Shown: positions 2,024 to 64,000 of the stretch, piece after piece
Numbering within the stretch: the stretch's first letter is position 1
How the letters are laid out: each line of letters starts with the position of its first letter
IMG/VR virus record: IMGVR_UViG_3300017788_004205
Location: 1-64,000 of that record
Direction: 5' to 3' (one strand)
DNA length: 64,000 nucleotides
Source: a virus
Notes under the pieces: generated by a model
Databases searched by the model: none
What the model saw: the letters and a program-made list of their open reading frames with translations, nothing else
What the model was told of the DNA's origin: nothing
Position numbers and translations under genes: made by a program

Positions 2024-2317
2024 TTATTCTTCTTCTTCGTGACTACTTTCTTCCATTTCTTCGTCAGACTCTTCTTCTGTATCTCCTTCATTTTCAGATT
2101 CTTCATCTTCATACTCACCTTTTTCTAAATTCTCAACATGCTCAGGATGTTCTTCTTCTCCATCTGCTTTATTGAGTTTCATCATTGGAATATCAACGAT
2201 AACTTCTTTGTCGTGTTGTTCGACTTCTTCTTCGTCTTTGAAGTGCAAATGGACATCTGAATCTTCAATTTCAATTTGAACGAACTCTTCGAATGTTTTG
2301 ATTATTCTGTTATTCAT
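2024..2317 (-). CDS. Small very acidic protein with capsid-targeting-like N-terminus (possible prohead core/internal protein)
   Basis: Probable start MNNRIIKTFEEFVQIE at 2317 (alternative ATG 2356); Glu-rich tail; GATATATA on minus strand at 2386-2393. Confidence 0.55.
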   Translation of the reverse strand: MNNRIIKTFEEFVQIEIEDSDVHLHFKDEEEVEQHDKEVIVDIPMMKLNKADGEEEHPEHVENLEKGEYEDEESENEGDTEEESDEEMEESSHEEEE

Positions 2318-2385
2318 ATCACAGTTTTTTTTAATTTTCGGATGAAAAACACCCATGTTCTAATTTACTATTAGAGTGTAATTTC

Positions 2386-2457
2386 TATATATCAGAAAAA
2401 AATAAAGAATTTCAAAAAAATAAAAATTAGCTTATTGTAAAAAATACAGGATATATA
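2386..2457. promoter_or_regulatory. Divergent pair of GATATATA late promoters
   Basis: TATATATC at 2386-2393 (minus) and GATATATA at 2450-2457 (plus). Confidence 0.55.
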
Positions 2458-2526
2458 AAATAGCTATATGATAAACTGTTAAATTCCCTAAGAAAATGAT
2501 TCTAACAAATCATTTTACATATAAAA

Positions 2527-3078
2527 ATGACAGTTTATTTAAAATATTACCATAAAGCCATGAAAAAACGCATAACAGGAATAAACCAAAATGGAAACTT
2601 AAATAATTCAAATAATTCAGCTAAACCTAACTCATTTACAAAGACAGAAAATATACAAGCATCTATATTTAGCCAAATCAACCAAGAAAAACAAAAAAAT
2701 AGAGACATTATACTTAAAAGTAAATACTCAGCGGCTTTGAAGTCATCTGCTGAAAATTTCCTGATAGACCTTTTTGAAAAAATTTCAACCCTTAATGATT
2801 TTGATAATGTGGATATTGAAATACCAATTAGTGCGGCTATGGCTATAATCAGTAATATAAGCTGGCATCAGCCTACTGAAGCTCAGGTAGAATATGATTT
2901 TACGAGAGAGTGTATGGATAATGGTCTTTATGCAATTCAAGTTTTAGGAGATGGAGACTTAGACATAGAAGAAGAAAAAATTAAAATTGATGATGATAAT
3001 ATAGAGAAAGAAGATGTAGAAGATAAAGAAGGCGAGGGGGGAGAAGAAAGTGAAGAAGGAGAAAAGGGAAAAGAATAA
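2527..3078 (+). CDS. Hypothetical protein with acidic C-terminus
   Basis: 183 aa ORF tiling with neighbours. Confidence 0.6.
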   Translation: MTVYLKYYHKAMKKRITGINQNGNLNNSNNSAKPNSFTKTENIQASIFSQINQEKQKNRDIILKSKYSAALKSSAENFLIDLFEKISTLNDFDNVDIEIPISAAMAIISNISWHQPTEAQVEYDFTRECMDNGLYAIQVLGDGDLDIEEEKIKIDDDNIEKEDVEDKEGEGGEESEEGEKGKE

Positions 3079-3080
3079 CA

Positions 3081-3287
3081 ATGAAAATTTTACTATTAAA
3101 GAATTGTAATTCCCCAGAATATCTTGAAGTAGTTAAAGAAAATGGCAAAAATCTTGTATTTGAGTCATACAAAGATATGGATGAGTGGATTTACGATATG
3201 GAACTTAATTCAGAATCTTTTACTCCTATTATTGTTGAAGAAAACAAAATAGATTTTGAGACTATATTCAGAGGAAGAAGTTTCTAA
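3081..3287 (+). CDS. Hypothetical protein
   Basis: 68 aa ORF starting 2 nt after the previous stop. Confidence 0.55.
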   Translation: MKILLLKNCNSPEYLEVVKENGKNLVFESYKDMDEWIYDMELNSESFTPIIVEENKIDFETIFRGRSF

Positions 3288-3302
3288 AAATTAGAGTCAT
3301 AT

Positions 3303-3665: not shown

Positions 3666-3680
3666 TTTTTCTAATCTTTG

Positions 3681-3747: not shown

Positions 3748-4851
3748 ATGCAGAACAAAAAAGAAACGGAAATCAAAAGAATATTTATGATTTCAGACCT
3801 TCATTTTGGGGTTCGTTCAAACAGCCCAGAATGGCTAAAAATCCAAACCGATTATTTCTACAAATACTTCATACCATTAGTAAAACAACATAAAAGAGAT
3901 GGAGATGCTTGTTTTATTCTTGGGGATATTTTTGATTCAAGACAATCTATTAACATCTTAGTTATGAATTCTTGTATTCAAGTTTTCCAAGAATTATCCA
4001 AAGTATTTGGAGAAGATGGTGTATATGTTATGGCTGGTAACCACGATTGTTGGACAAAAGATTCAGCCGAAGTTCATTCCCTTGTTTGCATTTCGGGTAT
4101 TCCGAATGTTCATGTTTACAATACCCCTGGGATAGTTCAATCCCCTCATTCCAAAATGATTCTTTTCCCATGGGGCATGCAAGTAGAAGAAGAAAAGGAA
4201 TTTTTAGAATCTACTTCTTCCGATATTCTTTTTGTCCATACAGATATAAAAGGTGCAAGATTCAATTCAAAGGTTGAAGTTGAGCATGGAAATGGAACAG
4301 AGACATATAGAAGACATAAAAAGGTATATGGTGGTCATATACATTATAGACAAAGAGTAAACGATTTTATTACCCTTATAGGCTCTCCTTATCAAATGAC
4401 GAGAACTGATATAGGGAATAGAAAGGGAGTTTACTTGCTTGACCTTGAAACAAAAGAAGAAACATTCTTTGAAAATGATTATTCACCAGAATTTATATCA
4501 GCCAACTTTGAATCTATCATAGATATGAATAGAGAAGAACTTGATTTAGTATTTTCAAATAAATTTGTTGATTTGAAAGTAGGCAAAAGATGGTTTGAAG
4601 AAGTTGATATTCCTTCATTTGTACTTTCTTTCAAAACCCAAAGGTCTATTCAATTACAAGAGATAGACGACTCTGATTCTATTGAATTAAACGAATCTCT
4701 TGATGTAGATTTCTTTGATGAAGCAACTCCAAATTTTGACATACTTACTTTAACAAAAGAACTTGTTAGTGCTTTGGAATTTGATGAAGAAACTAAAAAT
4801 AAAATAGAGAATAAGATAGCTCTATTGTATGATAAAATATCAGAAGAATAA
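3748..4851 (+). CDS. Recombination endonuclease subunit, T4 gp47/Mre11/SbcD-like
   Basis: Metallophosphoesterase motifs SDLHFG, GDIFD, GNHD, FVH, GGHIH, GSPYQ; linked to a Rad50-like gene. Confidence 0.9.
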   Translation: MQNKKETEIKRIFMISDLHFGVRSNSPEWLKIQTDYFYKYFIPLVKQHKRDGDACFILGDIFDSRQSINILVMNSCIQVFQELSKVFGEDGVYVMAGNHDCWTKDSAEVHSLVCISGIPNVHVYNTPGIVQSPHSKMILFPWGMQVEEEKEFLESTSSDILFVHTDIKGARFNSKVEVEHGNGTETYRRHKKVYGGHIHYRQRVNDFITLIGSPYQMTRTDIGNRKGVYLLDLETKEETFFENDYSPEFISANFESIIDMNREELDLVFSNKFVDLKVGKRWFEEVDIPSFVLSFKTQRSIQLQEIDDSDSIELNESLDVDFFDEATPNFDILTLTKELVSALEFDEETKNKIENKIALLYDKISEE

Positions 4852-4872
4852 AAAATCAAAAAAAGGTATATC

Positions 4873-7035
4873 ATGTTATCTAAAAATGAATATTCACAAG
4901 CGATTGAGATTATAGAAAACGCTATCAAAAAGTCTATTGGTCTTTTTGATTCTGCGAAAGAATTTGGATTAAACCAAAATGAAATACTACATATCTTAGC
5001 GAAGATAGAAGCATCCTATGCAATAGGTTCTTTAAGTAAAGAAGATTGGGATTATTATTCTGATTTAATTGGCAAATTTGAAACCAAATCGGAAACCATA
5101 GAAGTTCCTAATGGAGCAAATGAAGAAGAAATAAACGATATAGTTCAATCTATCGTTGAACTTTACCAAACTGGTAAAAATGACAAAGACAAAAGAGTAA
5201 CATTTGAAATAGGTGGTCTTTTAGTTAGACTTAAAAATATTCTACTCGGTTCTTATAATGAGTTTATCGACTCATGTCTTCCATTTAGCCAAAGAACTGC
5301 GAGAACTTATAAAAAAGCTTTCTTTGATATGGGTGGGGAATATACTCCAGAAACCGATAATGAAGAAGAAATAGAAGAAATAACAAGTAAAATAAATCAG
5401 CTTAGCGCTTATACAAAAAATGACCCTGAGAAAAAGTTTGCTTCTGAGATAGGAAAACTTTTAGTTAGGCTTAAAGACCTACTACCAGGTTCTTATAATG
5501 AATTTGTAGATACATATCTACCATTTAGCCAAAGAAGCGCAAGAACATATGCAAGAACGTTTTTTGATATGGGTGGAACATATACACCCTACGATAAACT
5601 TGAAATTAAAAAAGACGTACAATCTTTCCTTAAAAAGGGAAAGCAAAATGTAGGGACCGATGATGGTGATGTGGATTCACTTATTTCTTTCTTAAATCCA
5701 CAAAGTATTGATTTGAACGATGATTATGATGAACGTTCAAAATGGTGGGCAGAAAGAGATGAAGAAGGTAAAATAACAAAGTATAATTATCTTATCTACA
5801 TTCAAGATTCTCCTCCGCTCAAAGGTTCTTTTACCTGTGAGCAAATGGAAGAGATTTATAGAAAATATCCTTATGTAACTCAAAATACAATTAGCAGAGA
5901 TTTTCCTTACATCACATTCACAGAATTTAAGAAAATCTTGCGTTGTTTTAACATCACAAAAGATAAACTTTTTCCTCCTCATATTGTTGAGAATTATTCT
6001 GAAGATGAACTGGCATTATTTGCATTAAAAGCAAAAGAATCAGCTGGTTACAAAAAAATGATTGAGAAAAAGTCTGAATACTTTGAAAAAAGATTCAAAG
6101 ATGTTCAAAAGAACTTGCTTGATGTTAAAACGGACAGACAATGGATTGAAGGAGTATTGGATAAATATTTCAGCGAAGAACGTCAGCGCTCTGTTGAAAC
6201 TATAAGATTTTCAGATATTCCAAAAGTATCTGAAGAAGAAAAAGCAAAGCATCCTCGTTTATTTTGTTTTATGAGCGATTTGCATATTGGAAAGTTCTAT
6301 GAACATCCAATTTACGGTAGAGGATTCAACAAAGAAATAGCAAAAGAAAGATTCGAACAGTTGGCATTTCATATTTGTAGAGAATCTGAAAAATATGAAC
6401 ATCTAACTCTTCTTTGTGGTGGTGATATAACAGAATCTATCATGGAAGATGGACTTCATCACGGCATCCACAAATACATGGATTTATTTCAAGATGACCA
6501 AATTATGTATGCTCTTGACTTGTTCCATAGTTTATTCTCAACTATTATTCAAAACACAAATTTCAAGAGTATAGAACTTTTAGGTCTTGAAGGAAACCAT
6601 GATAGAATTGGCTCTCAAAGACATGATGATAAAAATAGAACAGCCGCTAAAGTAGTCTATAGATTCCTCCAAAGAGAATGGAAAGATAAAATAGATGTTA
6701 TTTTAGCAGAAGAAGGAATAATTAATCAGAAAAGAGAAAATATTTGCATAATTTCGCATCACGGAGATGCAAATTTGGCAAAGAAAAAGGGAGATGAGCT
6801 TGTAAATCTTTTTGGAGATGGAAAAAGATTTTACCATCTTGTTATCAAAGGGCATTTTCACCATCTTGAATGTAAAGAAGGTACGAATTTCCTTAGCATA
6901 ACGCTACCTTCTATTTGTTCTGCTGATACTTATTCTATAACGGAATTTGCACAAAACTCCCAGCCAGGATTTATACTTGGTCATCAAGCAGAATTTGGAT
7001 TGGGATTTGACTTCAAAAAAATAACCTTGTTTTAA
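4873..7035 (+). CDS. Multidomain protein: tandem DUF3102-like repeats plus C-terminal calcineurin-like metallophosphoesterase
   Basis: EIGxLLVRLK...LPFSQR(T/S)ARTY twice; SDLHIG, GGDITE, GNHDR, HHGD, GHFHH. Confidence 0.7.
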   Translation: MLSKNEYSQAIEIIENAIKKSIGLFDSAKEFGLNQNEILHILAKIEASYAIGSLSKEDWDYYSDLIGKFETKSETIEVPNGANEEEINDIVQSIVELYQTGKNDKDKRVTFEIGGLLVRLKNILLGSYNEFIDSCLPFSQRTARTYKKAFFDMGGEYTPETDNEEEIEEITSKINQLSAYTKNDPEKKFASEIGKLLVRLKDLLPGSYNEFVDTYLPFSQRSARTYARTFFDMGGTYTPYDKLEIKKDVQSFLKKGKQNVGTDDGDVDSLISFLNPQSIDLNDDYDERSKWWAERDEEGKITKYNYLIYIQDSPPLKGSFTCEQMEEIYRKYPYVTQNTISRDFPYITFTEFKKILRCFNITKDKLFPPHIVENYSEDELALFALKAKESAGYKKMIEKKSEYFEKRFKDVQKNLLDVKTDRQWIEGVLDKYFSEERQRSVETIRFSDIPKVSEEEKAKHPRLFCFMSDLHIGKFYEHPIYGRGFNKEIAKERFEQLAFHICRESEKYEHLTLLCGGDITESIMEDGLHHGIHKYMDLFQDDQIMYALDLFHSLFSTIIQNTNFKSIELLGLEGNHDRIGSQRHDDKNRTAAKVVYRFLQREWKDKIDVILAEEGIINQKRENICIISHHGDANLAKKKGDELVNLFGDGKRFYHLVIKGHFHHLECKEGTNFLSITLPSICSADTYSITEFAQNSQPGFILGHQAEFGLGFDFKKITLF
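5119..5598 (+). repeat. Tandem 240-nt (80-aa) intragenic duplication
   Basis: Units start at 5119 and 5359; e.g. TTAGTTAGACTTAAA at 5221 vs TTAGTTAGGCTTAAA at 5461. Confidence 0.9.
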
Positions 7036-7050
7036 TGTAAAGGCATAGAG

Positions 7051-8724
7051 ATGAAACTCACGCAAGTAAAATTTAGAAACATCAATTCCTATGGAAACAG
7101 ATGGCAAAATATTGATTTTAATCCAGATGAACCTGGGTTGTATCAAATTTGCGGTGAGAATGGGACTGGAAAATCTACTATAAGTCAAGTTCTTAAAATG
7201 GGGCTTTATGGAAGAGTTCAAGGTAAAAAAACAATAGCAAAGTGTGTTAATAGGATAAATAAGTCTGGTGAGATTTCAATTACATTTGAAACAAGACTTG
7301 GAAAGGTTGATGTTCAAAGAGGATTTTCTCCTAATTCATTTAACTTGAAAGTAGCAGGTAGCGAATATAAACAAGCTGGTGTTAAAAATGTTCAAGAATA
7401 TTTAGAAGAAAACCTAATAGGTATTCCTCAAAAAATATTCAATAATTCAATTAGTCTTTCAATCAATGATTTCAAGTCATTCTTGAATATGGGAGCGGAA
7501 GACAAAAGAGAGATTGTTGATAAAATCTTTGGTCTTGAAACAATCAACATTATGAGAAAGATGTTGAGTGAAGAGCTAAGAGAATCTAAAACATTTCTCA
7601 AAACTTGTGATGATAATATTAAATTCATCGAAGACAATATAGAAAGAGCAAATAGAGAATTGGCTATTGTTGAAGAAAAACTCCAAGAAGATAATTCTGA
7701 AAAGATAGCGCAATTAAAAGAAAAGTATGAGTCTATTCTTGCTTCTAAACTACCTTTTGAAGAAAAGAAGCAAAAAGCATCAGAGGCAAAAGAAAAACTT
7801 GATGAAGCTGAACGTAAAATCTCAAGAAACAAGCAAGAGATAAGAAGCAACATAGATTCATTAGCTAAACAAAAAAGGCTATATCAGTCAGAAAAATGCC
7901 CAACATGTGGTTCTGACCTTAAATCAGATGAACACCAACATAAGTTTCAAGAAATTCTAACTGAGGAAGAATCATATAGAGCTAAACTCAAAGAATTAGA
8001 AGATAAATCTTCTCAGGTGGATGAAAGAATGCAAAAAGCTAAAACAGCTTTAAGAGAATGCGATTCTCGTTTGATTGATATAGAATCAAAAATGCGTTCT
8101 ATCAGAACTCTTTTGAAAGAAGCTGAACAGCAAAAGGTAGATGAGCAAACAGATGGTATAAAAAGAATCATCGAGCAAAACTTCCAAAAATTGGAAGAAC
8201 TACAAGAAGAAAGGAAGAGAATTGTAAAAAAAGACAATATCAATAAATTGGTTGATGATTTGCTTGGTGATAAAGGCTTGAAAAAGTCTGTTATGGAGCA
8301 TATTGTTAAACCTATGAATGTTCAAGTGAATGCTATCTTAGCTCAGCTTGAATTGCCCTTTAAGGTGGAATTTGATGGTCAGTTTGATGCTAAACTTAAA
8401 CAGCTTTCTTATGAAATTAGCACAGATGAACTTTCAACTGGACAACTTAAAATGTTGGATTTTGCAGTGTTGCTTGCAATCATCAAAATGTTGAAAATTA
8501 AATTTCCAACTTTGAATATTTTATTTTTGGATGAAATTTTTAGTTCATTAGACCCTAATAACATATCAAGAATAGTTCATATTCTGAGAAGAATATCAAA
8601 GGAATACATGATGAACATAATGGTGATTAATCATGCTCCTTTACCAACAGAATTATTTGATTATACTATAACAACTGGGATTAAAGATAATTTCTCTAAT
8701 CTAACCGTTGAAAAATGCATGTAA
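7051..8724 (+). CDS. Recombination ATPase, T4 gp46/Rad50/SbcC-like
   Basis: Walker A GENGTGKS, coiled coil with CPTC zinc hook, LSTGQ signature, Walker B LFLDE, H-loop INH. Confidence 0.92.
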   Translation: MKLTQVKFRNINSYGNRWQNIDFNPDEPGLYQICGENGTGKSTISQVLKMGLYGRVQGKKTIAKCVNRINKSGEISITFETRLGKVDVQRGFSPNSFNLKVAGSEYKQAGVKNVQEYLEENLIGIPQKIFNNSISLSINDFKSFLNMGAEDKREIVDKIFGLETINIMRKMLSEELRESKTFLKTCDDNIKFIEDNIERANRELAIVEEKLQEDNSEKIAQLKEKYESILASKLPFEEKKQKASEAKEKLDEAERKISRNKQEIRSNIDSLAKQKRLYQSEKCPTCGSDLKSDEHQHKFQEILTEEESYRAKLKELEDKSSQVDERMQKAKTALRECDSRLIDIESKMRSIRTLLKEAEQQKVDEQTDGIKRIIEQNFQKLEELQEERKRIVKKDNINKLVDDLLGDKGLKKSVMEHIVKPMNVQVNAILAQLELPFKVEFDGQFDAKLKQLSYEISTDELSTGQLKMLDFAVLLAIIKMLKIKFPTLNILFLDEIFSSLDPNNISRIVHILRRISKEYMMNIMVINHAPLPTELFDYTITTGIKDNFSNLTVEKCM

Positions 8725-13696: not shown

Positions 13697-13972
13697 ATGT
13701 TAACTTTTAATGAATATAAGGATGAAAAAAATAAAGCACTATTAGAAGATGCAACCGAGGATGTTTTTGTAACTCCTGATAGAACACAATCAATTAGTGC
13801 TATAAATATGGCAATAGGTCAAATTCAACCAATAGTGACGAATTTGATGGATGTAGCGACAAAATTAGATGCGGCTAATGTAAATAGCTCAAAATTAAAG
13901 ACTATGTCTAAAAGTTTAGAGAATTACATAAACCAGTTAAAAGATGCAGCATCTAAGCCTCTAAGTGCCTAA
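13697..13972 (+). CDS. Small helical protein with capsid-targeting-like N-terminus
   Basis: MLTFNEYKDE...LLED. Confidence 0.6.
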   Translation: MLTFNEYKDEKNKALLEDATEDVFVTPDRTQSISAINMAIGQIQPIVTNLMDVATKLDAANVNSSKLKTMSKSLENYINQLKDAASKPLSA

Positions 13973-50863: not shown

Positions 50864-50887
50864 TAAACAAATAATAATAAGATATAT

Positions 50888-54117: not shown

Positions 54118-55572
54118 ATGCTGTTCAAAGGATTTTTACCAAATGTCAATCAGATACAGAAAGTAAATGAAAATGACAACAAAGACTTCTCAAAAGATGT
54201 TCAATTTTACAATGAAAGCTTTGATGGAGGTATTTTTAGAAAAAAAGCACAAGCCACATTAAATGAACTTACCCCTTATAATCTTTTGAGGGGCTTAGAG
54301 ATAGATACAGATTCTAAAGTTTATGCTAAACTTGCAGAAGATATGCCTACTTGTAAAGATGTTTTTGCTGAAAGTTCTGCTGAAAAACCTGTTGTTTCTC
54401 AAATTTTGATTACTCAATTAGATAAAGTTTCTGAAATGATAACACAGGTTAAGTCTGTTAATCCTGATTCTGAAGAATTTGATGCAATAGTATCCGCATC
54501 AAAGGATAAAATTAATATTCAAAAATTAAAAGCTATATTTAAAAGCATAAAGGATTTCGAAGGAGCAAGTGGAAATGTTGATTTTATAACATCACTGATT
54601 GTTGAATTAAAGAAAAAAATGCAAGGAGATAAAACTCCCCTTAAAGCAAAGGTATATGATGTTATAGATTCTAAAAATCTTGAAGAAATTGGATATGAAG
54701 ACATGACTACGAAATCCGTTAATTGGTTATCAGATGGAGGCGATATTGGGACTATGTTGTCTGATATGGATGCTATCCACAGAATAACCGCTTTCTTTGA
54801 GCTTTTAACTCCTCTTTTAAATATTAAAGGATTTGGATATATTCAATACAAAGAGAATAATGTTTACGATTATTTGAAATCTGGTTTAGACCTTGTAAAT
54901 ATTCTTTTAAACATCAAACTACCAGAAACAAGTTTTCAACAATATTCGGATTTGATTAAAGATATTGGTGCTAAAATTATAGCACCTGAAATAGATTTGC
55001 TTACAAGTAAATATGCAAAAAGCATTTATTTCCCAACTATTCAAACTCTTTATGTTTCTCTTTTATCTCTCTATACATTGAAAGTTATTAGTTCAAGTAT
55101 AACTTCTGTTGAAAAGAAAGAAGAAATAGCAAAAAAGGAAGAGGAAACAAAGAAAGCTGAGATGGCTAAAGAAGTTACTGCAAGCCAAGTTAACAGTAGC
55201 ATTAAAGCAATAGATACCTTGGATAAATCTGGATTCTTTACAAGTAAAAAAATATTTTACACTACACCAAAGAAAAAATATACTCCAGAAGAAAAGAAAA
55301 TGATTCCACAAATAAAGGAGTTTGTTACTACTCTCGGTTTAGTAAAAGACGCTGATGATAGTTGGAAAAAGGAAGAAAAATTCGATTCAATTCTTTCAGA
55401 TGCAGTTAAGAATTTCCAAGGTTCTATTCAAATAGATAAAAAAATATTAGCTGTTGATGGTAAAATAGGGCCAAACACAAGAAATGCAATGTTGGCTTAT
55501 TTAGAAGCTCTTAAGATGAAAACGGGAGTTGTTGCTTCCACTGATGTAAAAAAAACTAATCAGAGTACCTAA
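54118..55572 (+). CDS. Putative internal head protein (family A) with C-terminal peptidoglycan-binding domain
   Basis: DAVKNFQ...VDGKIGPNT; SIYFPTIQTLYVSLLSL similar to 56342/61099. Confidence 0.65.
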   Translation: MLFKGFLPNVNQIQKVNENDNKDFSKDVQFYNESFDGGIFRKKAQATLNELTPYNLLRGLEIDTDSKVYAKLAEDMPTCKDVFAESSAEKPVVSQILITQLDKVSEMITQVKSVNPDSEEFDAIVSASKDKINIQKLKAIFKSIKDFEGASGNVDFITSLIVELKKKMQGDKTPLKAKVYDVIDSKNLEEIGYEDMTTKSVNWLSDGGDIGTMLSDMDAIHRITAFFELLTPLLNIKGFGYIQYKENNVYDYLKSGLDLVNILLNIKLPETSFQQYSDLIKDIGAKIIAPEIDLLTSKYAKSIYFPTIQTLYVSLLSLYTLKVISSSITSVEKKEEIAKKEEETKKAEMAKEVTASQVNSSIKAIDTLDKSGFFTSKKIFYTTPKKKYTPEEKKMIPQIKEFVTTLGLVKDADDSWKKEEKFDSILSDAVKNFQGSIQIDKKILAVDGKIGPNTRNAMLAYLEALKMKTGVVASTDVKKTNQST

Positions 55573-55650: not shown

Positions 55651-56274
55651 ATGAAAATTCGCAATTTCAACGACTTTATATTAAATGAACAATCACTTTT
55701 TGAAGAAGGTGTTAAATCATCTAATCCTGAATTAACATCTAAGTTAGTTCAACTATTGGATGAAAAAAGTGAAGATGTAAATACAATCAAAGGATTGATT
55801 AACAGAGGTGCTGATATTAACGCAGTTGATACAGAAAAAGGAGCGAGCGTTCTTCATTTTGCGGCTATGCTGAACAGTGTAGATTTGGTGGACTTTTGCT
55901 TGAAAAAGGGAATCCCTGTTGATGTTAAAAGTAAAGCTAAAGCCACGCCTCTTCATTGGGCATGCACCAATAAAGCTTTAGAAGCTGTTCAATTCCTTAT
56001 AAAAAATGGAGCAGATGTAGAGGCTGTAGATGAAAATGGGATGACAGCATTGCATCATGCTTCTTATACGAATTCGATTGCAGTTGCAAAATATCTTGTT
56101 TCAATTGGAGCAAATCCAAATGCGGAAGATAAAAATGGTAAAACTCCTATTGAATTAGCAATGGAAGAAAAAGCAAAAGGGACCGTTAAAGCCCTTTCTT
56201 CTTCTGTTGATTTTTCTAACTTTGAATTTGAAGGAAAAGTTTATGATTTTTCAAAACTTATACCTCAAACTTAA
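55651..56274 (+). CDS. Ankyrin repeat protein with capsid-targeting-like N-terminus
   Basis: GASVLHFAA, ATPLHWAC, GMTALHHAS, GKTPIELA with GAD/GAN turns; MKIRNFNDFILNE. Confidence 0.9.
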   Translation: MKIRNFNDFILNEQSLFEEGVKSSNPELTSKLVQLLDEKSEDVNTIKGLINRGADINAVDTEKGASVLHFAAMLNSVDLVDFCLKKGIPVDVKSKAKATPLHWACTNKALEAVQFLIKNGADVEAVDENGMTALHHASYTNSIAVAKYLVSIGANPNAEDKNGKTPIELAMEEKAKGTVKALSSSVDFSNFEFEGKVYDFSKLIPQT

Positions 56275-56341: not shown

Positions 56342-57829
56342 ATGCTATTTAGAAACTTAAATTTTGACAAAAAAGCCCAAAATATATCAGAAGGAAATTT
56401 TATTTCTGCTGATTTTCTGGGGATTTTTGATAGTGATGCAAAATCTAAACTCGCAAATCTTACAATAGATAAGATGTTTGAGGGGTTAGATTTAGAAAAA
56501 AGTGCAGAATTGCATGATTTTATTGAAGCATACGCCCCTTCTTTGAAAGCACAGCCTGCTACAAGCACAACTCCTTCTATAACCGATGCTATGGGATTGC
56601 AAAATTCTAAAAAAAGTGTTTTCGAGCTTATTAACTCTCAATTACACTATATGCAATTAAGATTAGAAGGTGTAGAAAGGGAACTTGATAAATTTTACAA
56701 AGACATTGAAACAGCTTATAGTAAAACAATATCCAAAGAAGAATTAGAAGGTTCTGTATCTGGTTTTACAAGCCCAGAAAATATAGCATCTATAATACCT
56801 AAGATTAATTCTATTGTAGAAGAAGCGATAAAAACAGGTCTTGTAAATTTTGAAAATTCAAGCACAAAGCAAGCATTTTTAACTCTGCATAAGTTAAAAA
56901 TTAGCAGTTATATTTTTGCATTAAGAGAGAATATATTAAATGATGCTAAAAATGTTAGCATTTTACCACTATACAGAAAAATAGATTCTCTTGATTTAGA
57001 AGAAATCACAGCAGAAAACGCGATGCTTTCTGAAATAAAGTCTTATATGGACAATCCTCTTGATATATCGGGGATGTATAAATCATTTGACCCAATCGCA
57101 AGAATTTCAGCTTTCTTGGAAGAATCGTTGATGCAATACGAATATGGTATTGACTTGAGGAAAACATTTGGCTCGAATTATACGGAAACATTCAATAATT
57201 CAGAGGCATTGTCAACAGGAGTTTTAAGAAAGTTTGTGAAGACAATAGATATTAGTGTTTTTGAGCCATTACAAGAACTCTTGTATGATGTTGCTCTTAC
57301 ACTTATCCAAAGAGTTTATGCCCAAAATACTGATGAAGATGATAAGAATATATTTGTTCCTTCTCTTCAGTTCATGTATCTTTCTATGATTTCTCTTCTT
57401 GCATTTAAGCTTATTGATTATAATCTTAAAGTTAAAACAGCTTCTATCCAAAGAGAAGAAAGAATCAAAGCTGAACAACAAGCGGCAGTTGTTGAAGACA
57501 AGAAATCAAGAGCGATGAAATTATATGATACATACAAGCAATTGAATGCTTTGAACTTCTTCAAAAAGGGCGGTCTTGTTTACAAGAAAGAATCAAATAG
57601 AATGCTTCCAGAGATTGTTAAGTTGATTAATAACTTCTTTGTTTATGCAGGAGACCTTGATAAATCTAAATTAGATAGTCCTACTTTTGATGATATGACT
57701 TATCAAGCTGTGTTGAAGTTTCAAACAGAAACTGAATGCAATCTCAAAGACGGCAAAATAGGAAATGAAACAAGAGGAAGAATGCAGGGAATTGCAGAAG
57801 CAACAGCATCATCTTATAGCATTGTGTAA
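56342..57829 (+). CDS. Putative internal head protein (family A), C-terminal peptidoglycan-binding domain
   Basis: Paralog of 61099-62523; FDDMTYQAVLKFQ...DGKIGNET. Confidence 0.7.
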   Translation: MLFRNLNFDKKAQNISEGNFISADFLGIFDSDAKSKLANLTIDKMFEGLDLEKSAELHDFIEAYAPSLKAQPATSTTPSITDAMGLQNSKKSVFELINSQLHYMQLRLEGVERELDKFYKDIETAYSKTISKEELEGSVSGFTSPENIASIIPKINSIVEEAIKTGLVNFENSSTKQAFLTLHKLKISSYIFALRENILNDAKNVSILPLYRKIDSLDLEEITAENAMLSEIKSYMDNPLDISGMYKSFDPIARISAFLEESLMQYEYGIDLRKTFGSNYTETFNNSEALSTGVLRKFVKTIDISVFEPLQELLYDVALTLIQRVYAQNTDEDDKNIFVPSLQFMYLSMISLLAFKLIDYNLKVKTASIQREERIKAEQQAAVVEDKKSRAMKLYDTYKQLNALNFFKKGGLVYKKESNRMLPEIVKLINNFFVYAGDLDKSKLDSPTFDDMTYQAVLKFQTETECNLKDGKIGNETRGRMQGIAEATASSYSIV

Positions 57830-57862: not shown

Positions 57863-58780
57863 ATGGAAAATAAAGTATTTAAATATCTGAATTTTATAGA
57901 ACCTAAGGAACCATCAAGTATATCATTTTATGATAATCTCAATGAGTCCAATATTTATAATACAGAATCCTATAAATGGGCATATAAAGATATTAATTTA
58001 GAAAATTTTGATACAAAATACACCAGTATTTTCTACAATTCCCTTTCTAAGCTCCTCTACGGTGAGTCTGGTAAACCAGAAGAGCCTAAATTCGGGCCAG
58101 GGTATGAACAGAGTAAGTCTAAATTGGAAAAAACACAAAAGCTTTTTTCTCTTATATGGAACAATGCAAAAAGCGCAATCAATAAACTTTTACAGGATAA
58201 TAAAACTATTTTTCCTAAAAGTATAATAGATGAAATTAGCAAATTAGAATATAATTTACCAAAAGATTTTACAAGTTCGGATTATATATTCGATAGACTT
58301 AAAAATAATAATCTGGATGGTTTCCCAGAAAACTTAAAGTCTAAAATTAACAAAATTCAGATAAATACTAATGAACTGAAAAATTATTCTATTGGTATTT
58401 ATGAATCAGTTACAAATAGCAATAAAGATAATTTTAACAAAAATATATCAACAACATTAGGCAATGACGTTAAGAATATAGTAGAAAAGTTGAAGAAAGT
58501 CTATTTTCCAAATCTTCAAAATTACTCTTCGATAGAAAGTGAAATGAAGGATACTTTCTCATCATTATATGTTGATTGTTACCTTTATACTTTATCAAAC
58601 TCTATCTTCAATTATAAGAAAGGTTCTTCTGATATCGTTAAAAAACAAGATGCTTCTACTGAAGTTAAAAAAACAGTTTCGCGTAAGTCGAGTGGAGCAA
58701 CTAAAAGAGAACAAGCATCTTCTAAACAATTATCAAAGGATGATTGGACAAATATATTGAAGAAAAGGGGATTACTTTAA
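57863..58780 (+). CDS. Putative internal head protein
   Basis: KVFKYLNFIE...LNES; weak similarity to neighbours (KLLYG, VYFPNLQ). Confidence 0.6.
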   Translation: MENKVFKYLNFIEPKEPSSISFYDNLNESNIYNTESYKWAYKDINLENFDTKYTSIFYNSLSKLLYGESGKPEEPKFGPGYEQSKSKLEKTQKLFSLIWNNAKSAINKLLQDNKTIFPKSIIDEISKLEYNLPKDFTSSDYIFDRLKNNNLDGFPENLKSKINKIQINTNELKNYSIGIYESVTNSNKDNFNKNISTTLGNDVKNIVEKLKKVYFPNLQNYSSIESEMKDTFSSLYVDCYLYTLSNSIFNYKKGSSDIVKKQDASTEVKKTVSRKSSGATKREQASSKQLSKDDWTNILKKRGLL

Positions 58781-58807: not shown

Positions 58808-59932
58808 ATGATAATAGAATTTTCTAAATTCGCATCTTTGAAAGAAAATGTAACAGTTAACACTAATTTTTTATTTGAAGATATGTTTGATGAAAAAAGT
58901 CAATCGGAAAACATATCTAAAAACGCAGAAGTTATATCTAAAAATGTTATAGATAGTTCTTTATCTCTCAAGGATAATATAAAGAACTTTTTATACAATA
59001 AATTAAATACAGTTATTTACGGAACATCCGATAAACAAAAAAACACAGGCTCTCCTGTGGATTATATAGTAACTAATAGTGAAAAGCTCATAGATTATGC
59101 TGTTGAAATACAAACAACTGGAACTTATTCGACATTTTGGAGAAGCACTATGGGATATTTTGGAACATTTGCTATTGCAGTCGCTACGGCTTGGTATTTA
59201 TGGAAAAAAAGAAGTGCTTATAAAAAGGCTTTACAGTATATTATTAAACCAGAAGTTGAGGCTGAATTTATACAAAAGACCGAAACATCTGGTGTGCTTA
59301 AATTAAAAAAGGATGTTGAGAATTATAAAAGAGGTCAAGAGTTGTTCAGAGAAACTAATGGCAAGTTTTATGTTCTTCTACCTTTAGGTAGTAAAGAATA
59401 TCTAAAATTTGGTTACGATAAAACTCTAACCAGACCTATGAAGGATATTCTATTAGATGAATGGAAGAATTTACCATTAAAAACACCTTCTACTTCTACA
59501 ATAAAGAAAGTTGGGATATTTTTATCAAGAGTATCACAACCTCAAGCTTTGGCTACTGCTGGAGCTACAATATCACTACCATTTATATGGGAAAATTTGA
59601 ATGTTTTATGGGATTGGTTTATGAGCAATGTTAAGTCAGATGAACCTGGCTATAAGACATTTGTAGAACTTGGGACTGTAATAAATAATAGAGAACAGTA
59701 TATTGAGAAGTTTTATCAATCTTTGATTGAAACTCCAGCCTTTGATAAGGATTTGGATTTGCCATATAATGTTATTACCTCAATTTCTAATTTCGATAAA
59801 TTAGGTATAGATAATCCCGATAAAATTGGATATGCTGTATGTAGATTAATAGCACAAGCAACATTTGAATATCAAAAAGGAACAGCAGTTTCTACGATAT
59901 ATTCAGCCGTATCAAATGAATTAAAAGCATAA
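58808..59932 (+). CDS. Putative internal head protein (family B) with hydrophobic helix
   Basis: MIIEFSKFASLKE; FGTFAIAVATAWYLW; NPDKIGY. Confidence 0.6.
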   Translation: MIIEFSKFASLKENVTVNTNFLFEDMFDEKSQSENISKNAEVISKNVIDSSLSLKDNIKNFLYNKLNTVIYGTSDKQKNTGSPVDYIVTNSEKLIDYAVEIQTTGTYSTFWRSTMGYFGTFAIAVATAWYLWKKRSAYKKALQYIIKPEVEAEFIQKTETSGVLKLKKDVENYKRGQELFRETNGKFYVLLPLGSKEYLKFGYDKTLTRPMKDILLDEWKNLPLKTPSTSTIKKVGIFLSRVSQPQALATAGATISLPFIWENLNVLWDWFMSNVKSDEPGYKTFVELGTVINNREQYIEKFYQSLIETPAFDKDLDLPYNVITSISNFDKLGIDNPDKIGYAVCRLIAQATFEYQKGTAVSTIYSAVSNELKA

Positions 59933-59938: not shown

Positions 59939-61084
59939 ATGATAACTAATTATAGCGATTTTGTATTAAACGAAGGTTATACTAATCCTCAAAAGGTTTA
60001 TACAATAGATAAGATAAAACTTAGAACTCAGGGTGAGTATTTAGCTAATCCTTCTCTTATAGATGAAGATATAGCTAAGTTTAGAAACTTATCGGAACTC
60101 ATAAATTTAGATGATATTTTAAGAAAAAAAGATTATAGTAAATATTCATCCGCACTAAAAGAATTTATCAAAACGAAAGCATATAATAAGTTAGTAGAGG
60201 TAATGTATGGTAAGGGATATAATAATCCAGAAAAAGATTCTACAGAAATAATAGTAGGATTAGACCCATCTTCAATGGCTTCTGCTATGAAATATGGCTC
60301 TACTCCAAAAACTATTAAAATGACTCGCGGAGAATACTTCAAAAAAGTTTGGGCAAGAGTTGATGAATATTGTGATAATTCTGTTGAATTTTTACAAAAA
60401 GGCATAATAGAAGATACATTAGGGGATTTTGTAGATTATAGTAAAAACATACTTTTAATAATACTCGCGGCTGTTATTATCTATTTCGGGGCAAAGGCTA
60501 TGGCAGTAGGAGCATCTGGAGTTGTAACTTTTGCGTCATCTACCACAGGTCTTTCTGCTATACGTAACATAATATTAAATGCAGGAGTTAAGTCAATGCC
60601 CTTTGTTGAAAAGTGCTCCTTGGCTATACAGAGACTTGTATCTAATCCTAAAACTTGGATGAGTTTAGCATCATGGGAAATATTTGATGCGGCTCCTAAA
60701 ATAATAGAAATGTTTTCGTCTAATGATGCTGACGTTTTGCTACAACTCGATGAAGAACATATTTTAGAAAAACTCTCAGAAAAAAACAAAAAAGTACAGA
60801 TAGCAAAAATCAAGAAAGCATTGGAAGAGCATTCTGACTTCAATGTTAAACCATTTTTAGACGGCCCAGTTCAAGTATGGCAAGATGCATTTCAAAGGAT
60901 GCCAGGGTGGGAAGCATGGTCTCAAAAAGAAGGTAAATCTATAAACAACAATCCACAAAATCTTGGTTATATATTTACATATTACATAGCTTTATACGCA
61001 TATCAATTTCAACTATTTATTTGGAAATACAATTATCTGCTAACATTAAAAGAAGGTAGAGATGTTGATTTTTCAAAACTTTAA
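59939..61084 (+). CDS. Putative internal head protein (family B) with hydrophobic helices
   Basis: MITNYSDFVLNE-G; ILLIILAAVIIYFGA; LEEHSDF, MPGW, NLGYIFTYYI. Confidence 0.65.
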   Translation: MITNYSDFVLNEGYTNPQKVYTIDKIKLRTQGEYLANPSLIDEDIAKFRNLSELINLDDILRKKDYSKYSSALKEFIKTKAYNKLVEVMYGKGYNNPEKDSTEIIVGLDPSSMASAMKYGSTPKTIKMTRGEYFKKVWARVDEYCDNSVEFLQKGIIEDTLGDFVDYSKNILLIILAAVIIYFGAKAMAVGASGVVTFASSTTGLSAIRNIILNAGVKSMPFVEKCSLAIQRLVSNPKTWMSLASWEIFDAAPKIIEMFSSNDADVLLQLDEEHILEKLSEKNKKVQIAKIKKALEEHSDFNVKPFLDGPVQVWQDAFQRMPGWEAWSQKEGKSINNNPQNLGYIFTYYIALYAYQFQLFIWKYNYLLTLKEGRDVDFSKL

Positions 61085-61098
61085 AATAAGAACTAACA

Positions 61099-62523
61099 AT
61101 GCTCTACAGACCTATCCATCCAAATAAAAAAGAAGATATTAACAGAGTAGATGAGAGTAATTTTATCTCTTCTGATATGTTAGGTATATTTGATTCAGAT
61201 GCAAGAGTTAAATTAAGTGCTCTCACAATAGATAAATTATTTGAAGGATTAGATATAGATAATTCAAATGAAATTCATAGTTTCATTACTTCATTTGCTC
61301 CTTCCTTATCAAAAGTTATGGGAGTTTATAGTTCAGAGTCTAACTATGCATTCGAGATTCTAAAGGCTCAACTGATGTATATGCAAACTATTTTGCAAGA
61401 TGTTGAGAATGATATAGATTCTTTTTACAAGAATGTAATTAATGTTCACAAAAGCTATACAGACGGCCAAACAATAGAAACTCTTGTTGCTAAGTATAGC
61501 AATCCAAATAGTGTTGGTTCTATTTTCCCTGAGGTTGAAAAAATAGTTAAACAAGCAAAGAAATCAGGAGTTGATTTTAATAACCCAAGAGTTAAAGAAA
61601 CATTCAAAACTCTTCAAAAGTTGAATGTTAGCACTTATATTAGTCAAACCCTAAGTTCAATTGAAGTTTCAGCTTCAAATGTAAGTTTGCTTCCTCTTTA
61701 CAAGAAGATAGATGGAATGAATTTAGAAGAAATCACGGGAGATAATGCAATCGCTCCTCAAAACAAGAGTCATTTGTTTTTAACTCTTGATTTCAATTCT
61801 ATGTATACTTCTTTAGACCCAATTGCAAGACTGGGAGCTTTCTTTGAAGAAACTTTATTGCAATATCCATTCGGAAGACAATTAAAGAAGAATTTCGGAG
61901 ACGAGTATGAGTATTTTGATACTATTGAACATAGCATGTCTGCTATAAAACAATTTGTTCCTTCGGTTGATTATACTGTATTTGAACCGATGAAAGAAAT
62001 GCTTTATGAAATTAGTGCTTTATTGGTAAATCGAGTGTTTTCAATGCACCCAGAAGAAGATTCTAAGAATATATTCGTTCCTTCTTTTCAAGTTATGTGG
62101 GTGAGTATATTATCTCTTTTAGCTTTAAGACTCATTAACTTTAATGTTAGAGTTTCAAATGTTATTACTCAAAAAAAGGAAGAGAAAAAAGAACTAAAAT
62201 CCGAAAAAGCATCTGAATTAACTCAAGCTTATGAAACTCTAAAGCAACAAAACTTCTTTACAGACAAAATTACCTATAAAGAAGGTGATGCGACAATGAA
62301 TCCAGAGATAATCAAAAATATAAATAATATCTTAGTTAAGTTGACAATACTTCCAGATTCTAAGATTAATTCTACGCAGTATGATAGTCAAACAGCGGAA
62401 GCTATTAGAACACTTCAAATGAATCATTCTGCTGAATTTGTTGATGGGAAGATAGGTCAAGAAACAAAAGAAATTATGGAAAAGATTATCAATCACATAC
62501 AAAATAAATATAAAATGTCTTGA
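61099..62523 (+). CDS. Putative internal head protein (family A), C-terminal peptidoglycan-binding domain
   Basis: Paralog of 56342-57829; YDSQTAEAIRTLQ...VDGKIGQET. Confidence 0.7.
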   Translation: MLYRPIHPNKKEDINRVDESNFISSDMLGIFDSDARVKLSALTIDKLFEGLDIDNSNEIHSFITSFAPSLSKVMGVYSSESNYAFEILKAQLMYMQTILQDVENDIDSFYKNVINVHKSYTDGQTIETLVAKYSNPNSVGSIFPEVEKIVKQAKKSGVDFNNPRVKETFKTLQKLNVSTYISQTLSSIEVSASNVSLLPLYKKIDGMNLEEITGDNAIAPQNKSHLFLTLDFNSMYTSLDPIARLGAFFEETLLQYPFGRQLKKNFGDEYEYFDTIEHSMSAIKQFVPSVDYTVFEPMKEMLYEISALLVNRVFSMHPEEDSKNIFVPSFQVMWVSILSLLALRLINFNVRVSNVITQKKEEKKELKSEKASELTQAYETLKQQNFFTDKITYKEGDATMNPEIIKNINNILVKLTILPDSKINSTQYDSQTAEAIRTLQMNHSAEFVDGKIGQETKEIMEKIINHIQNKYKMS

Positions 62524-62525
62524 AA

Positions 62526-63620
62526 ATGGAAAACAAAAAAAGAATACTCAATTTTCAGAATTTTGTAATCAATGAAAGTTCATTACATGAGTCTAATACA
62601 GTAGATATCCCAGATTCAGAAATTTCAAAGATTCTTGATAGAGATATGACAACATATCTAAAAGGTCGTATGTGGGAAAAAAGTATTGAAGTTTTTTTTG
62701 GTAAAGATTATCTTAAAAAACCAGGTTTCAATCCAGAGAAAGATACTACTCCTATTACCGTAGATAATTGGATTTCAGGCAATGTATCGATTGATGCTGG
62801 TGGGTTTTTTAGAGATTCTTGGCAAGAGACTGACCAATTTTGCAATAGAGCAGTTGAGCTTGTAAAGACAGGTGAGTTATCAGATTTCTTAGGTAAAATT
62901 GCAGTCCCAGCTGGTTGGGCTGGAATAACCGCTGCAACAGTAGCGGGTCTTATAGCTATTGGTGGGATTGCTATTCCAAGTGCTACTATTGCTTCTGGCT
63001 TTATAGGAGCGACAGGAGGATTAGGATGGGGTGCAATAGCAATTAACACATCTGCGCTTGGTTCATTAGCTCTTAATTTAGCCCCTTTATTTTCGGATAA
63101 TCCAAAGATTGACCCAAGTCTTCAAAGAATAGCAAAGATGGTTATTAACAAAGAAGAAACTATAAAAGAATTTCAAAATGCTTTACAAGAACATTCTGAT
63201 TTTGAAGCAGATTGGGGTCTTGATAATTGGTTATCAGGAATAGATGAGATGCCAGGATGGTCAAAAAGCACTTGGAAAGAAAAAGGAGCAGATAATATAG
63301 GCTATCTCTTTACTTATTGGATTTCTTATTATTCTTATATTTACTTAAAAACAAAATTTGGAGCTTCTGTTGCTCAGGCTATAAAAAACTTTGAACAGGG
63401 TGGCGGTTCTGTTAAATTGATTGATAAGCCATTTGAAATCAATCAAAAAACATCAATAGAGCCCATTTCTAAGCCTTCTGAGGGGACTTCAGGTTCTACT
63501 CCTATAAATTCTCAAGTTCAAGCACAAGGAAGCCCTGTGGCGACCGCAGATGCCTCAAATTGGGTTAAAAAGAGAGAAGTTACCGTCAATGACGAAGTTC
63601 TTTCAAAATATGGATTCTGA
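62526..63620 (+). CDS. Putative internal head protein (family B) with long Gly/Ala hydrophobic segment
   Basis: MENKKRILNFQNFVINES; AGWAGITAATVAGLIAIGGIAI...; LQEHSDF, MPGW, NIGYLFTYWI; likely ATG 62526. Confidence 0.65.
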   Translation: MENKKRILNFQNFVINESSLHESNTVDIPDSEISKILDRDMTTYLKGRMWEKSIEVFFGKDYLKKPGFNPEKDTTPITVDNWISGNVSIDAGGFFRDSWQETDQFCNRAVELVKTGELSDFLGKIAVPAGWAGITAATVAGLIAIGGIAIPSATIASGFIGATGGLGWGAIAINTSALGSLALNLAPLFSDNPKIDPSLQRIAKMVINKEETIKEFQNALQEHSDFEADWGLDNWLSGIDEMPGWSKSTWKEKGADNIGYLFTYWISYYSYIYLKTKFGASVAQAIKNFEQGGGSVKLIDKPFEINQKTSIEPISKPSEGTSGSTPINSQVQAQGSPVATADASNWVKKREVTVNDEVLSKYGF

Positions 63621-63672
63621 TACATTAAAACTTATTTTTTTAACATTATTCGTAATGTAGGTTTTAATTTTA

Positions 63673-63680
63673 GATATATA
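63673..63680 (+). promoter_or_regulatory. Putative late promoter GATATATA
   Basis: 26 nt upstream of GTG 63706. Confidence 0.65.
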
Positions 63681-63705
63681 GAGTAAATCAAAATTTTGAA
63701 AAAGC

Positions 63706-64000
63706 GTGATTACAAAGTTCGACATATATTCAAATAATAAACTGAATGAGATAGCTGGTATTTATGATGGTTATTATGGGACAACTCTAAAAGATTTTAG
63801 AATGTCCGATTTATACCAAATTACAGCTCTTTCGGCTCAATCTACCATTGAAATCTTCAATGGTAATGATACATTTCAAACCGCACTTCTTCCTACATCT
63901 TCACTTTGGAATATGATTGATGTTGGTTATAAATCATGTACTACTGGTATGCTTTCCTTACTTAAAGCAAATTTCAAGAAATCTGATATAGAAGCGTTTG
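63706..64000 (+). CDS. Putative internal head protein, 3' truncated (absent from ORF track)
   Basis: GTG ATT ACA AAG TTC... translates MITKFDIYSNNKLNEIAG... and stays open to the window end. Confidence 0.65.
   Translation, partial: MITKFDIYSNNKLNEIAGIYDGYYGTTLKDFRMSDLYQITALSAQSTIEIFNGNDTFQTALLPTSSLWNMIDVGYKSCTTGMLSLLKANFKKSDIEAF

Follow-up and report, generated by a model that had tools for sequence, protein, structure and literature searches.

A candidate T4-type capsid targeting sequence at the N-termini of many unrelated proteins of an uncultivated T4-like phage

The window analysed here, a stretch of 64,000 nucleotides, is the first 64 kb of the 86,812-bp IMG/VR record IMGVR_UViG_3300017788_004205 (G000). 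Many unrelated proteins encoded in this DNA begin with variants of one short peptide. We consider it likely, with a probability of about 0.75, that this peptide is a T4-type capsid targeting sequence (CTS), that is, a short and removable tag. A tag that closely matches the head-loading tag of T4 occurs on roughly a quarter of the genes of this fragment, and therefore the phage probably loads into its head, and injects, an unusually large complement of enzymes and of proteins aimed at the cell envelope. An earlier sequence-only reading of the window had proposed capsid loading. The support we can add is indirect. All computational tests run agree with a T4-type targeting propeptide.

The motif was defined as [ILVM]xx[FY]xx[FY] with its first position among residues 1–30; in most cases [LIV]-N-E comes after it. 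This regular expression matches 27 of the 95 open reading frames (ORFs) on the 86.8-kb contig, where 4.5 matches would be expected from the rate within proteins (Poisson P 6e-13). Most of the matches (21 of 27) start at residues 1–10, and the predicted tags are 11–17 residues long when counted from a plausible start codon. An artefact of translation starts would be conceivable if the pattern arose by composition, from first codons rich in A and T (K, N, I, F, Y, E) in genes without a Shine-Dalgarno sequence. The GC content is 31%, and upstream of the genes the DNA is rich in A and shows no obvious ribosome-binding site. Residue-wise shuffling of the N-termini already gives 7.9 ± 2.5 matches, more than the 4.5 derived from protein bodies. 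However, the 27 observed matches lie 7.6 standard deviations above these composition-preserving shuffles, of which the highest among 2000 reached 16 matches. Furthermore, spacing is fixed and the terminal Glu invariant across 60–120 homologues, and in T4, whose GC content is similar, N-termini are not generally enriched for the pattern (22 observed vs 15–19 expected). The regular expression is therefore not merely triggered by AT-rich phages. Chance or composition as the cause of the motif is effectively refuted, and we assign an artefact of this kind almost no weight.

A profile hidden Markov model built from 22 tags of G003, a complete 256-kb relative with terminal repeats, proved too specific. 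It scored 3–4 G000 tags, and T4 IPII and IPIII received 3–4 bits. We therefore used a two-part matrix with leave-one-out training, which combines an aromatic part and a cleavage part across a spacer of at most 9 residues and was calibrated on internal positions. At the stringent threshold (score ≥12) this matrix finds 13 ORFs in G000 against 0.57 expected false matches; at a looser threshold 25 ORFs pass against 4.5. In the 200-kb relative G001, which contributed nothing to training, 26 ORFs score above the stringent threshold where 1.3 are expected. All 13 tags of the stringent set contain [FY]xx[FY]. Position P1 is E in all 21 tags, and in 17 of them P3 is occupied by L, I or V. In G000, between 0 and about 8 spacer residues lie between the targeting and cleavage halves of the tag, and the genes starting at 28376 and 64997 have exact T4 spacing. 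Taken alone, the cleavage half is no diagnostic feature, since [LIVMF]xE[SAG] is enriched just 1.6-fold in the first 35 residues.

The tagged proteins had been described as unrelated to each other, and this is indeed the case. After removal of the first 40 residues, BLAST sorts the candidates into about 20 separate families with differing Pfam domains and three small paralogue groups. It had also been claimed that replication and tail genes lack the motif. This absence extends to transcription, translation and portal genes: no tag was seen on the Mre11-like, Rad50-like, UvrD, gp32, UvsW, gp55-like sigma or IF3 proteins, on the gp3-like, gp4, gp2 or portal proteins, or on identifiable tail and baseplate genes.

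The tag of T4 internal proteins reads MKTYQEFIAE (bioRxiv 10.1101/2021.01.19.427310). Suppressor-substitution work in T4 has assigned residues 4 and 7 to targeting and residues 8 and 10 to processing (PMC9026906). The conserved positions of G000 tags correspond to exactly these four residues, Y4 and F7 (targeting) and I8 and E10 (cleavage), so that the T4 analogy drawn from the letters alone is sustained by the mapped positions. Our regular expression applied to T4 recovers IPI, IPII and IPIII. In G003, exact T4 spacing ([FY]xx[FY][ILVM]xE) is found at 24 of 338 N-termini, where 2.0 would be expected (P 6e-18). The consensus of G003 tags is MKHIKLFEQF[ILV]NE and one protein begins MTYAEFIAE; the cores KLFEQFINE and TYAEFIAE are near-identical to KTYQEFIAE of T4. 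Fourteen of the G003 tagged genes form a tandem array of small genes that recalls the variable internal-protein loci of T-even phages. As a side observation, two proteins of T4 itself (AF158101) that are not annotated as head proteins have tag-like N-termini: gp61.1 (54 residues, 18966–19130, minus strand) begins MKTFKEFIKE and gp57B (73952–74410, minus strand) begins MMEFKDF.

The conservation of individual tags can be followed in two families. Among 120 database homologues of the RimK-like protein at 28376 (56–98% identity), 117 keep [VIL]L[ND][FY]xxF[LI]NE↓[SA], where the arrow marks the putative cleavage position; the three exceptions are truncated. An alignment of 60 sequences shows no variation at E15 and conservation of 90% or more at L7, F12 and N14. 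AlphaFold2 models residues 1–20 of this protein with predicted local distance difference test scores of 55–65 and opens the fold with a strand at 23–28. The Pfam domain Rimk_N begins at residue 23, the same place as the first strand, and the tag lies before it. The 63706 family (58 homologues) keeps MITxFxxF and LNE↓, followed by a nearly invariant mature start, [IV][AS]GIYDGYYG. Insertions and deletions are confined to the spacer between the two halves of the tag, and the aromatic pair is present in all full-length homologues. Across 16 orthologue pairs from G000 and G001, the tag is 42% identical as compared to 59% for the following 30 residues, with a sharp boundary at Glu; the pattern is kept while residues change. 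Judging from these alignments and the structural model, the tag is a modular linear signal under selection, located outside the predicted fold of the RimK-like enzyme.

The shared 5′ ends could in principle serve mainly as recombination linkers for cassette swapping, with a peptide that is itself nearly functionless. The plasticity of the tagged array, with orthologues missing or relocated in G001, and the 14 tandem small tagged genes of G003 would fit such a role. Linkers would require DNA identity, whereas conservation here is at the level of amino acids: residues change while the pattern persists, and identical tag residues use different codons in 32 of 72 cases (44%). These differing codons therefore indicate selection on the peptide, not on DNA or mRNA. 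The codons at F, Y and E positions of the tag also differ between genes. We regard recombination linkers as a very improbable explanation.

A Peptidase_S77 (gp21-type) domain is found in G001, G003, G004, G005 and the GenBank phage LR756500, which is to say in every sufficiently long relative. In an alignment with T4 gp21, its catalytic His and Ser match the motifs GELNHP and SSRG. The G001 protease (166459–168477, minus strand) is a 672-residue fusion of the S77 domain with about 450 residues of coiled-coil-like repeats of the YSNYLAENL type, and its tail after the repeats carries VNE↓S, VNE↓S, VNE↓S and INE↓N. Similar fusions of 604–632 residues occur in G003 and LR756500. From its sequence, the repeat region fused to the S77 domain is probably a scaffold. 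The gp23-like capsid proteins of the relatives have N-termini of the form M..LINE↓AEIRETWSPIIE↓S...L(N/Y)E, with PIIE↓S among the sites, and their propeptide is homologous to and collinear with that of T4 gp23 (...ELLNKWKPLLE↓G...FLTE↓A). Taken together, these sequences show [LIV]-N/x-E sites common to the capsid propeptide, the scaffold and the ends of the tags.

The tagged genes and their neighbours are listed below by position. Scores are from the leave-one-out matrix, domain names are Pfam matches, and coordinates above 64,000 lie on the G000 contig outside the window.

2024–2317, minus strand: small acidic ORF; tag MNNRIIKTFEEFVQIE (nt 2317–2270), score 17.4; a longer ORF from an ATG at 2356 is also possible; the G001 orthologue begins MANRIVKTFEEF.
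13697–13972, plus strand: 91-residue ORF; tag MLTFNEYKDE↓K..ALLE↓D, score 19.2; the G001 orthologue begins MKSFSEFLG.
14079–14423, plus strand: gp55-like late sigma factor (Sigma70_r2), untagged; 87% identical to G001.
28376–29827, plus strand: RimK-type ATP-grasp ligase with a weakly matching Zn_protease-like C-terminal domain; tag MYTNTVLNYTSFLNE↓S (nt 28376–28420) with T4 spacing.
44391–46040, plus strand: gp20-like portal (PHROG 213, E 1e-67), untagged; 85% identical to G001.
46152–46616, plus strand: conserved 154-residue protein adjoining the portal, first gene of the array; tag MKIFEEYKKDKVHE↓A, score 9.0; 78% identical to G001; the G003 gene in the equivalent position begins ..LIKTFEQFIFE↓A.
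46629–48947, plus strand: 772-residue protein, tag unconvincing.
48928–49881, plus strand: 317-residue Peptidase_M15_4 protein, untagged.
49886–50863, plus strand: Peptidase_M15_3 and PG_binding_1 protein; tag MENRRILTYDKFNLNE↓V, score 16.6; the G001 orthologue reads ..IYSFGEFVLNE↓V.
50888–52141, plus strand: 417-residue protein; weak tag ILSFRDF..SLLE↓S, score 9.9; C-terminal hydrophobic segment at residues 363–400.
52153–54093, plus strand: 646-residue protein; tag MITKFNQYQKLLE↓D, score 14.9; weak C-terminal PG_binding_1 match.
54118–55572, plus strand: 484-residue paralogue of 56342 and 61099; long degenerate leader ending FYNE↓S; weak PG_binding_1 match.
55651–56274, plus strand: ankyrin-repeat protein (Ank); tag MKIRNFNDFILNE↓Q, score 20.4.
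56342–57829, plus strand: 495-residue protein; degenerate leader ..NISE↓GNFIS; internal hydrophobic segment.
57863–58780, plus strand: 305-residue basic protein; tag MENKVFKYLNFIE↓P...NLNE↓S, score 9.1; no G001 orthologue.
58808–59932, plus strand: 374-residue protein; tag MIIEFSKFASLKE↓N, score 8.9; no G001 orthologue.
59939–61084, plus strand: 381-residue protein; tag MITNYSDFVLNE↓G, score 18.5; internal membrane-helix-like segment at residues 167–193.
61099–62523, plus strand: 474-residue protein; degenerate leader ..RVDE↓SNFIS; hydrophobic segment; C-terminal PG_binding_1; the tag of the G001 orthologue is canonical, MIPNFNNF..KLNE↓GNFISS.
62526–63620, plus strand: 364-residue paralogue of 59939; tag MENKKRILNFQNFVINE↓S, score 19.0; Gly/Ala-rich hydrophobic segment.
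63706–64000 and on to contig position 64986, plus strand: 426-residue PG_binding_1 protein with a GTG start; tag (M)ITKFDIYSNNKLNE↓IAGIYDGYYG, score 14.0.
Contig 65704: FMN_red (flavodoxin/FMN-reductase-like) protein, tagged.
Contig 70209, minus strand: phosphoribosyltransferase-domain protein, tagged.

Further tagged ORFs outside the window lie at 64997, 70951, 71427, 72468 (minus strand) and 82534. All 13 N-termini that the sequence-only reading had called clearest are present in the DNA at the positions it gave. Four of these tags (2317, 28376, 49886 and 62526) stand behind an ATG located inside a longer ORF. Nine of these 13 fall into the stringent matrix set, and the remaining four (46152, 50888, 57863 and 58808) are weaker, with scores of 8.9–9.9. 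Among the looser versions offered, 54118, 56342 and 61099 are upheld by their orthologues or by an abrupt onset of similarity past Glu: in the pair 56342/61099 similarity begins exactly past ISE↓G and VDE↓S, as had been noticed, and at 54118 similarity to the G001 orthologue begins past YNE↓S. The other two, 42676 (minus strand; MKTFTETTE) and 46629, were rejected since the second aromatic residue or the pattern is missing. The ORFs at 1666 (thioredoxin) and 29817 (minus strand) and the portal were discarded as false positives of the regular expression or start-codon artefacts.

Some tagged proteins resemble envelope-active proteins. PG_binding_1 domains are found at 61099 and 63706, with weaker matches at 52153 and 54118. 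A hydropathy scan identified internal hydrophobic segments at 50888, 56342, 59939, 61099 and 62526, and in about six other ORFs of the contig. PHROGs labels the C-terminal domains of the peptidoglycan-acting tagged proteins 'endolysin', and no PHROGs family was found for 10 tagged proteins; most of the cargo lacks one. A search of the cargo against the ESM Atlas gave sub-threshold leads alone (0.79–0.81), which point again to PG_binding. These domains raise the question whether the shared peptide is an export or lysis leader, by which peptidoglycan-acting proteins would leave the cytoplasm late in infection as endolysin-like enzymes and would not be injected. Several tagged proteins do contain PG_binding_1 or Peptidase_M15 domains, and the 'endolysin' labels point in the same direction. 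Yet the hydropathy scan detected no N-terminal hydrophobic segment in any tagged protein; the tags are short, contain E, D and N, and do not fit the signals for Sec, Tat or lipoprotein export, in which an uninterrupted hydrophobic core comes after a positively charged n-region. The same tag also precedes cytoplasmic-type enzymes and binders (ATP-grasp ligase, phosphoribosyltransferase domain, ankyrin). Because of the absent hydrophobic core and these cytoplasmic-type enzymes, a secretion leader is unlikely. In addition, nine or more lysis enzymes in one phage would be without precedent. Overall we consider this explanation highly unlikely.

The densest group of tagged genes (46152–65455) opens directly after the portal gene. 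In the portal surroundings of LR756500, the protease-scaffold and capsid genes are directly next to the portal, without an adjoining tag array. These genes hold the same position in G003, and in G001 they lie about 85 kb away. The 772-residue protein at 46629–48947 occupies the G003 position of the protease-scaffold gene, and we considered whether it could be a diverged paralogue; phmmer gave no link, and the idea was dropped. The array is plastic. No G001 orthologue was found for 57863, 58808, 71427 and 82534, those of 59939, 61099 and 62526 are located elsewhere in G001, and G001 has tagged genes that are missing in G000. On this comparison, the tagged array is one that turns over quickly.

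Several tagged genes are preceded by the octamer element GATATATA, which occurs at 23 sites in the window (835–63680) where 4.3 would be expected, mostly 30–85 nt upstream of start codons. In the window it stands upstream of the tagged genes 2024 (minus strand; element at 2393–2386), 28376 (28345), 46152 (46111), 56342 (56307) and 63706 (63673), and outside it upstream of 65704, 70209 (minus strand) and 70951. A further example is the site at 40204. An unsupervised octamer search upstream of G003 ORFs ranks [GA]ATATATA[GA] first (17–19 fold), and these sites include positions upstream of the portal and protease genes. GATATATA is probably a late promoter read by the gp55-like sigma factor, as far as its placement and the sigma gene allow us to judge. 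At 50888 the start codon is uncertain because GATATATA at 50881 overlaps the assigned ATG (50881–50888). The true start may lie downstream nearer to ILSFRDF, where there is no obvious ATG, GTG or TTG.

A conserved linear motif could still direct its proteins to a destination other than the capsid. The target might be another part of the virion (the baseplate or the lumen of the tail), an assembly site inside the cell or a chaperone of the phage, whether or not the peptide is cleaved. Selection acts on a short unstructured peptide whose sequence itself names no destination, and no protease was found on the G000 fragment. On the other hand, the four conserved positions are the experimentally mapped residues of the T4 capsid tag, the capsid propeptide and scaffold of the relatives share the [LIV]-N/x-E sites, and the array adjoins the portal gene while identifiable tail and baseplate genes are untagged. 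We therefore consider another destination unlikely, although it is the alternative we take most seriously.

Several other observations weigh against a capsid tag. Neither an S77 protease nor a gp23-like capsid gene was found on the G000 record, which is 31% complete according to CheckV, so that their presence in this genome is inferred from relatives. About 10 of some 23 candidates score in a range where at least one third could be chance matches, four to six of the tags listed here are weak, and G000 tags are more degenerate than those of G003. A quarter of all ORFs as head cargo would far exceed T4. GATATATA is also found upstream of some genes without an obvious structural role, and thus the label 'late' is not established. 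The analysis shows the motif, its enrichment and pattern of conservation, and the protease, scaffold and capsid machinery of the relatives; binding, cleavage, packaging and ejection are inferred.

The RimK-like enzyme offers a connection to other phages. In the cultured T4-like pelagimyophage Mosig (Pelagibacter phage, MT647606), the homologue at 1495–2880 begins MQVQPFKNYLEE↓A with T4 spacing; therefore this tagged enzyme is shared with marine Kyanoviridae. The homologue in Yersinia phage YerA41 is annotated as 'structural protein'. Liquid chromatography–tandem mass spectrometry of YerA41 particles identified a 'ribosomal protein modification protein' among 63 proteins (PMC7354516), which is probably the product of this RimK-like gene. 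However, the same list includes replication enzymes (PMC7354516) and is therefore not clean evidence, and the N-terminus of the YerA41 homologue is not a canonical tag. As support for a capsid tag, we rate the YerA41 finding as weak.

By analogy with T4, the capsid tag may function as follows. Tagged proteins would be made late, from arrays whose GATATATA promoters the gp55-like sigma factor probably recognises. The hydrophobic-x-x-[FY]-x-x-[FY] half would bind the scaffolding core that assembles on the portal, and this binding would trap the cargo in the prohead while its shell is still open. Cleavage by a gp21-type S77 prohead protease would follow, past [LIV]-N/x-E and mostly before S, A or G, and would free the mature protein inside the head. 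At infection the cargo would exit with the DNA. The 18–20 kb post-portal array, with its M15 peptidases, peptidoglycan binders and hydrophobic-segment proteins, probably encodes an envelope-crossing 'ejectosome', if the analogy to other phages holds. The scattered tagged enzymes and binders (RimK-type ligase, ankyrin, phosphoribosyltransferase, flavodoxin/FMN-reductase-like) probably act on the host and resemble T4 Alt in concept.

G000 stems from a freshwater metagenome, has a GC content of about 31% and contains no tRNA genes. About 60% of sampled G000 words recur in four runs from one drinking-water study. A megablast search with 20 kb of G000 found no close DNA relatives among GenBank phages. 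T4-type modules comprise a Mre11/Rad50-like pair (3748–8724), a gp3-like gene (8998), the gp55-like sigma factor, gp4 head closure (43242), gp2 (43750) and the gp20 portal; gp32 and UvsW are encoded outside the window. The nearest GenBank phage portals belong to uncultured huge phages, namely LR756500 (462 kb, 39% identity), LR756501–504 and LR745206 (634–735 kb), and to Prevotella Lak megaphages (34%). Closer relatives are present in IMG/VR. The whole G000 contig is syntenic with G001, with proteins 35–87% identical, and the portal of G003 is about 40% identical to that of G000. By gene content and portal similarity, G000 is a T4-like phage with Mahaphage- and Lak-type huge phages as nearest portal kin.

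A few features of the contig stand apart from the tags. IMG/VR labels G000 'provirus', yet all 86.8 kb are syntenic with G001 and no host flank is apparent. IF3 is encoded at full length at 18960–19478 on the minus strand (IF3_N and IF3_C); the adjacent ORF 19504–22269 (minus strand) was rejected as IF2 because it has no Pfam match. At 23783–25783 (plus strand) a 666-residue protein contains long collagen triple-helix repeats (Pfam Collagen, E 9e-50), with GATATATA at 23739; this protein may be a fibre. At contig 67069–68516, a Pro/Thr-rich ORF of 58 residues and the next ORF of 418 residues correspond to a single 523-residue G001 ORF that begins MKKMKYLLGLNE, so that either G000 has a split gene or G001 a fused one. 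At contig 72468–75271 (minus strand), an untagged Amidoligase_2 protein is encoded directly upstream of a tagged 473-residue protein (MIGNFNSFELYRLLE↓S), and the two may be an enzyme pair.

Among known systems, the closest is the CTS of T4 IPI, IPII, IPIII and Alt, which is removed by gp21 (Peptidase S77). The likeness includes the N-terminal position, a length of 10–20 residues, a pair of aromatics at a distance of three with [IL]-x-E behind it, and unrelated, fast-evolving cargo. The relatives further share with T4 the S77 protease, the gp23-like propeptide, the gp20-like portal and the gp55-like sigma factor. There are also differences. The lineage is distant from T-even phages, and the G000 portal shares about 33–39% identity with those of Mahaphage and Lak relatives. 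A spacer of variable length often stands between the two parts of G000 tags, targeting and cleavage, and P2 is mostly Asn where T4 has Ala. About 13–25 tagged ORFs lie on 87 kb, as compared to three IP proteins recovered by the regular expression in all of T4. The cargo comprises peptidoglycan hydrolases and binders, hydrophobic-segment proteins and recognisable enzymes, and not just small basic proteins. Finally, the protease of the relatives is fused to a scaffold.

The phiKZ-like giants phiKZ, 201phi2-1 and SPN3US have large heads, package and eject dozens of head proteins, some of them membrane-spanning, and possess a gp21-related protease (PMC5694885). Their propeptides are mostly longer than 100 residues and are removed after Glu at a [S/A/G]-x-E motif (PMC5694885). 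G000 tags do not follow this pattern. They are 11–20 residues long, their P3 position holds L, I or V, and their aromatic pair resembles that of T4. The giants have no shared short consensus tag. We liken the post-portal array to SPN3US gp47 (PMC5694885) by analogy and not by homology. Fewer than 30 N-terminal residues of DarB from phage P1 are enough to bring a foreign protein into the capsid (PMC9024508). The P1 lineage is unrelated, and its Dar proteins lack a shared consensus and an S77-type cleavage motif. The proteins gp14, gp15 and gp16 of T7 and gp7, gp16 and gp20 of P22 are packaged in the head, leave with the DNA and bridge or digest the envelope. T7 gp16 contains a peptidoglycan-cleaving domain. 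These T7 and P22 ejection proteins are not known to share a cleavable N-terminal tag. They are unrelated in sequence to the G000 array, and the analogy is limited to its probable role after the portal. For P22, an ejection conduit has been described (PMC8402733).

Reviews have already suggested that T4-like phages can use the tag to load a variety of proteins (PMC9026906; PMC3012670). In the literature searched, we found no description of such tags in huge phages, nor of tags on this scale (about 13–25 per 87 kb; at least 24 in G003), of the spacer form with Asn at P2, or of these cargo classes. In kind, the tag system is that of the T4 tag and gp21, with a notable expansion in scale and cargo.

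A broader proposal, which we advance tentatively and at somewhat less than even odds, is that the T4 tag is a sequence-readable address label conserved across the T4 superfamily, from T4 by way of pelagimyophages such as Mosig to huge freshwater phages. In the G000 phage at least 20% of genes would then encode head cargo that includes a complete envelope-breaching ejectosome and host-modifying enzymes. If this were true, DNA alone would suffice to list the proteins that uncultivated phages inject, the number of cargo types would be an order of magnitude above that of T4, and a RimK-type glutamate ligase/protease would be delivered at infection.

The interest of the tag lies in making the injected proteome of uncultivated large phages predictable and testable. 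If it works as in T4, it would provide a sequence rule to list the head-carried, injected proteins of large uncultivated T4-like phages. The listed proteins, mostly now 'hypothetical', would likely be envelope-crossing machinery, anti-defence factors and host-modifying enzymes. The separable targeting and cleavage parts could be useful for engineering protein delivery by phages that infect Bacteroidota-like or freshwater hosts. The head-loading system itself would be much older and more widespread than the T-even phages, with dozens of cargo types.

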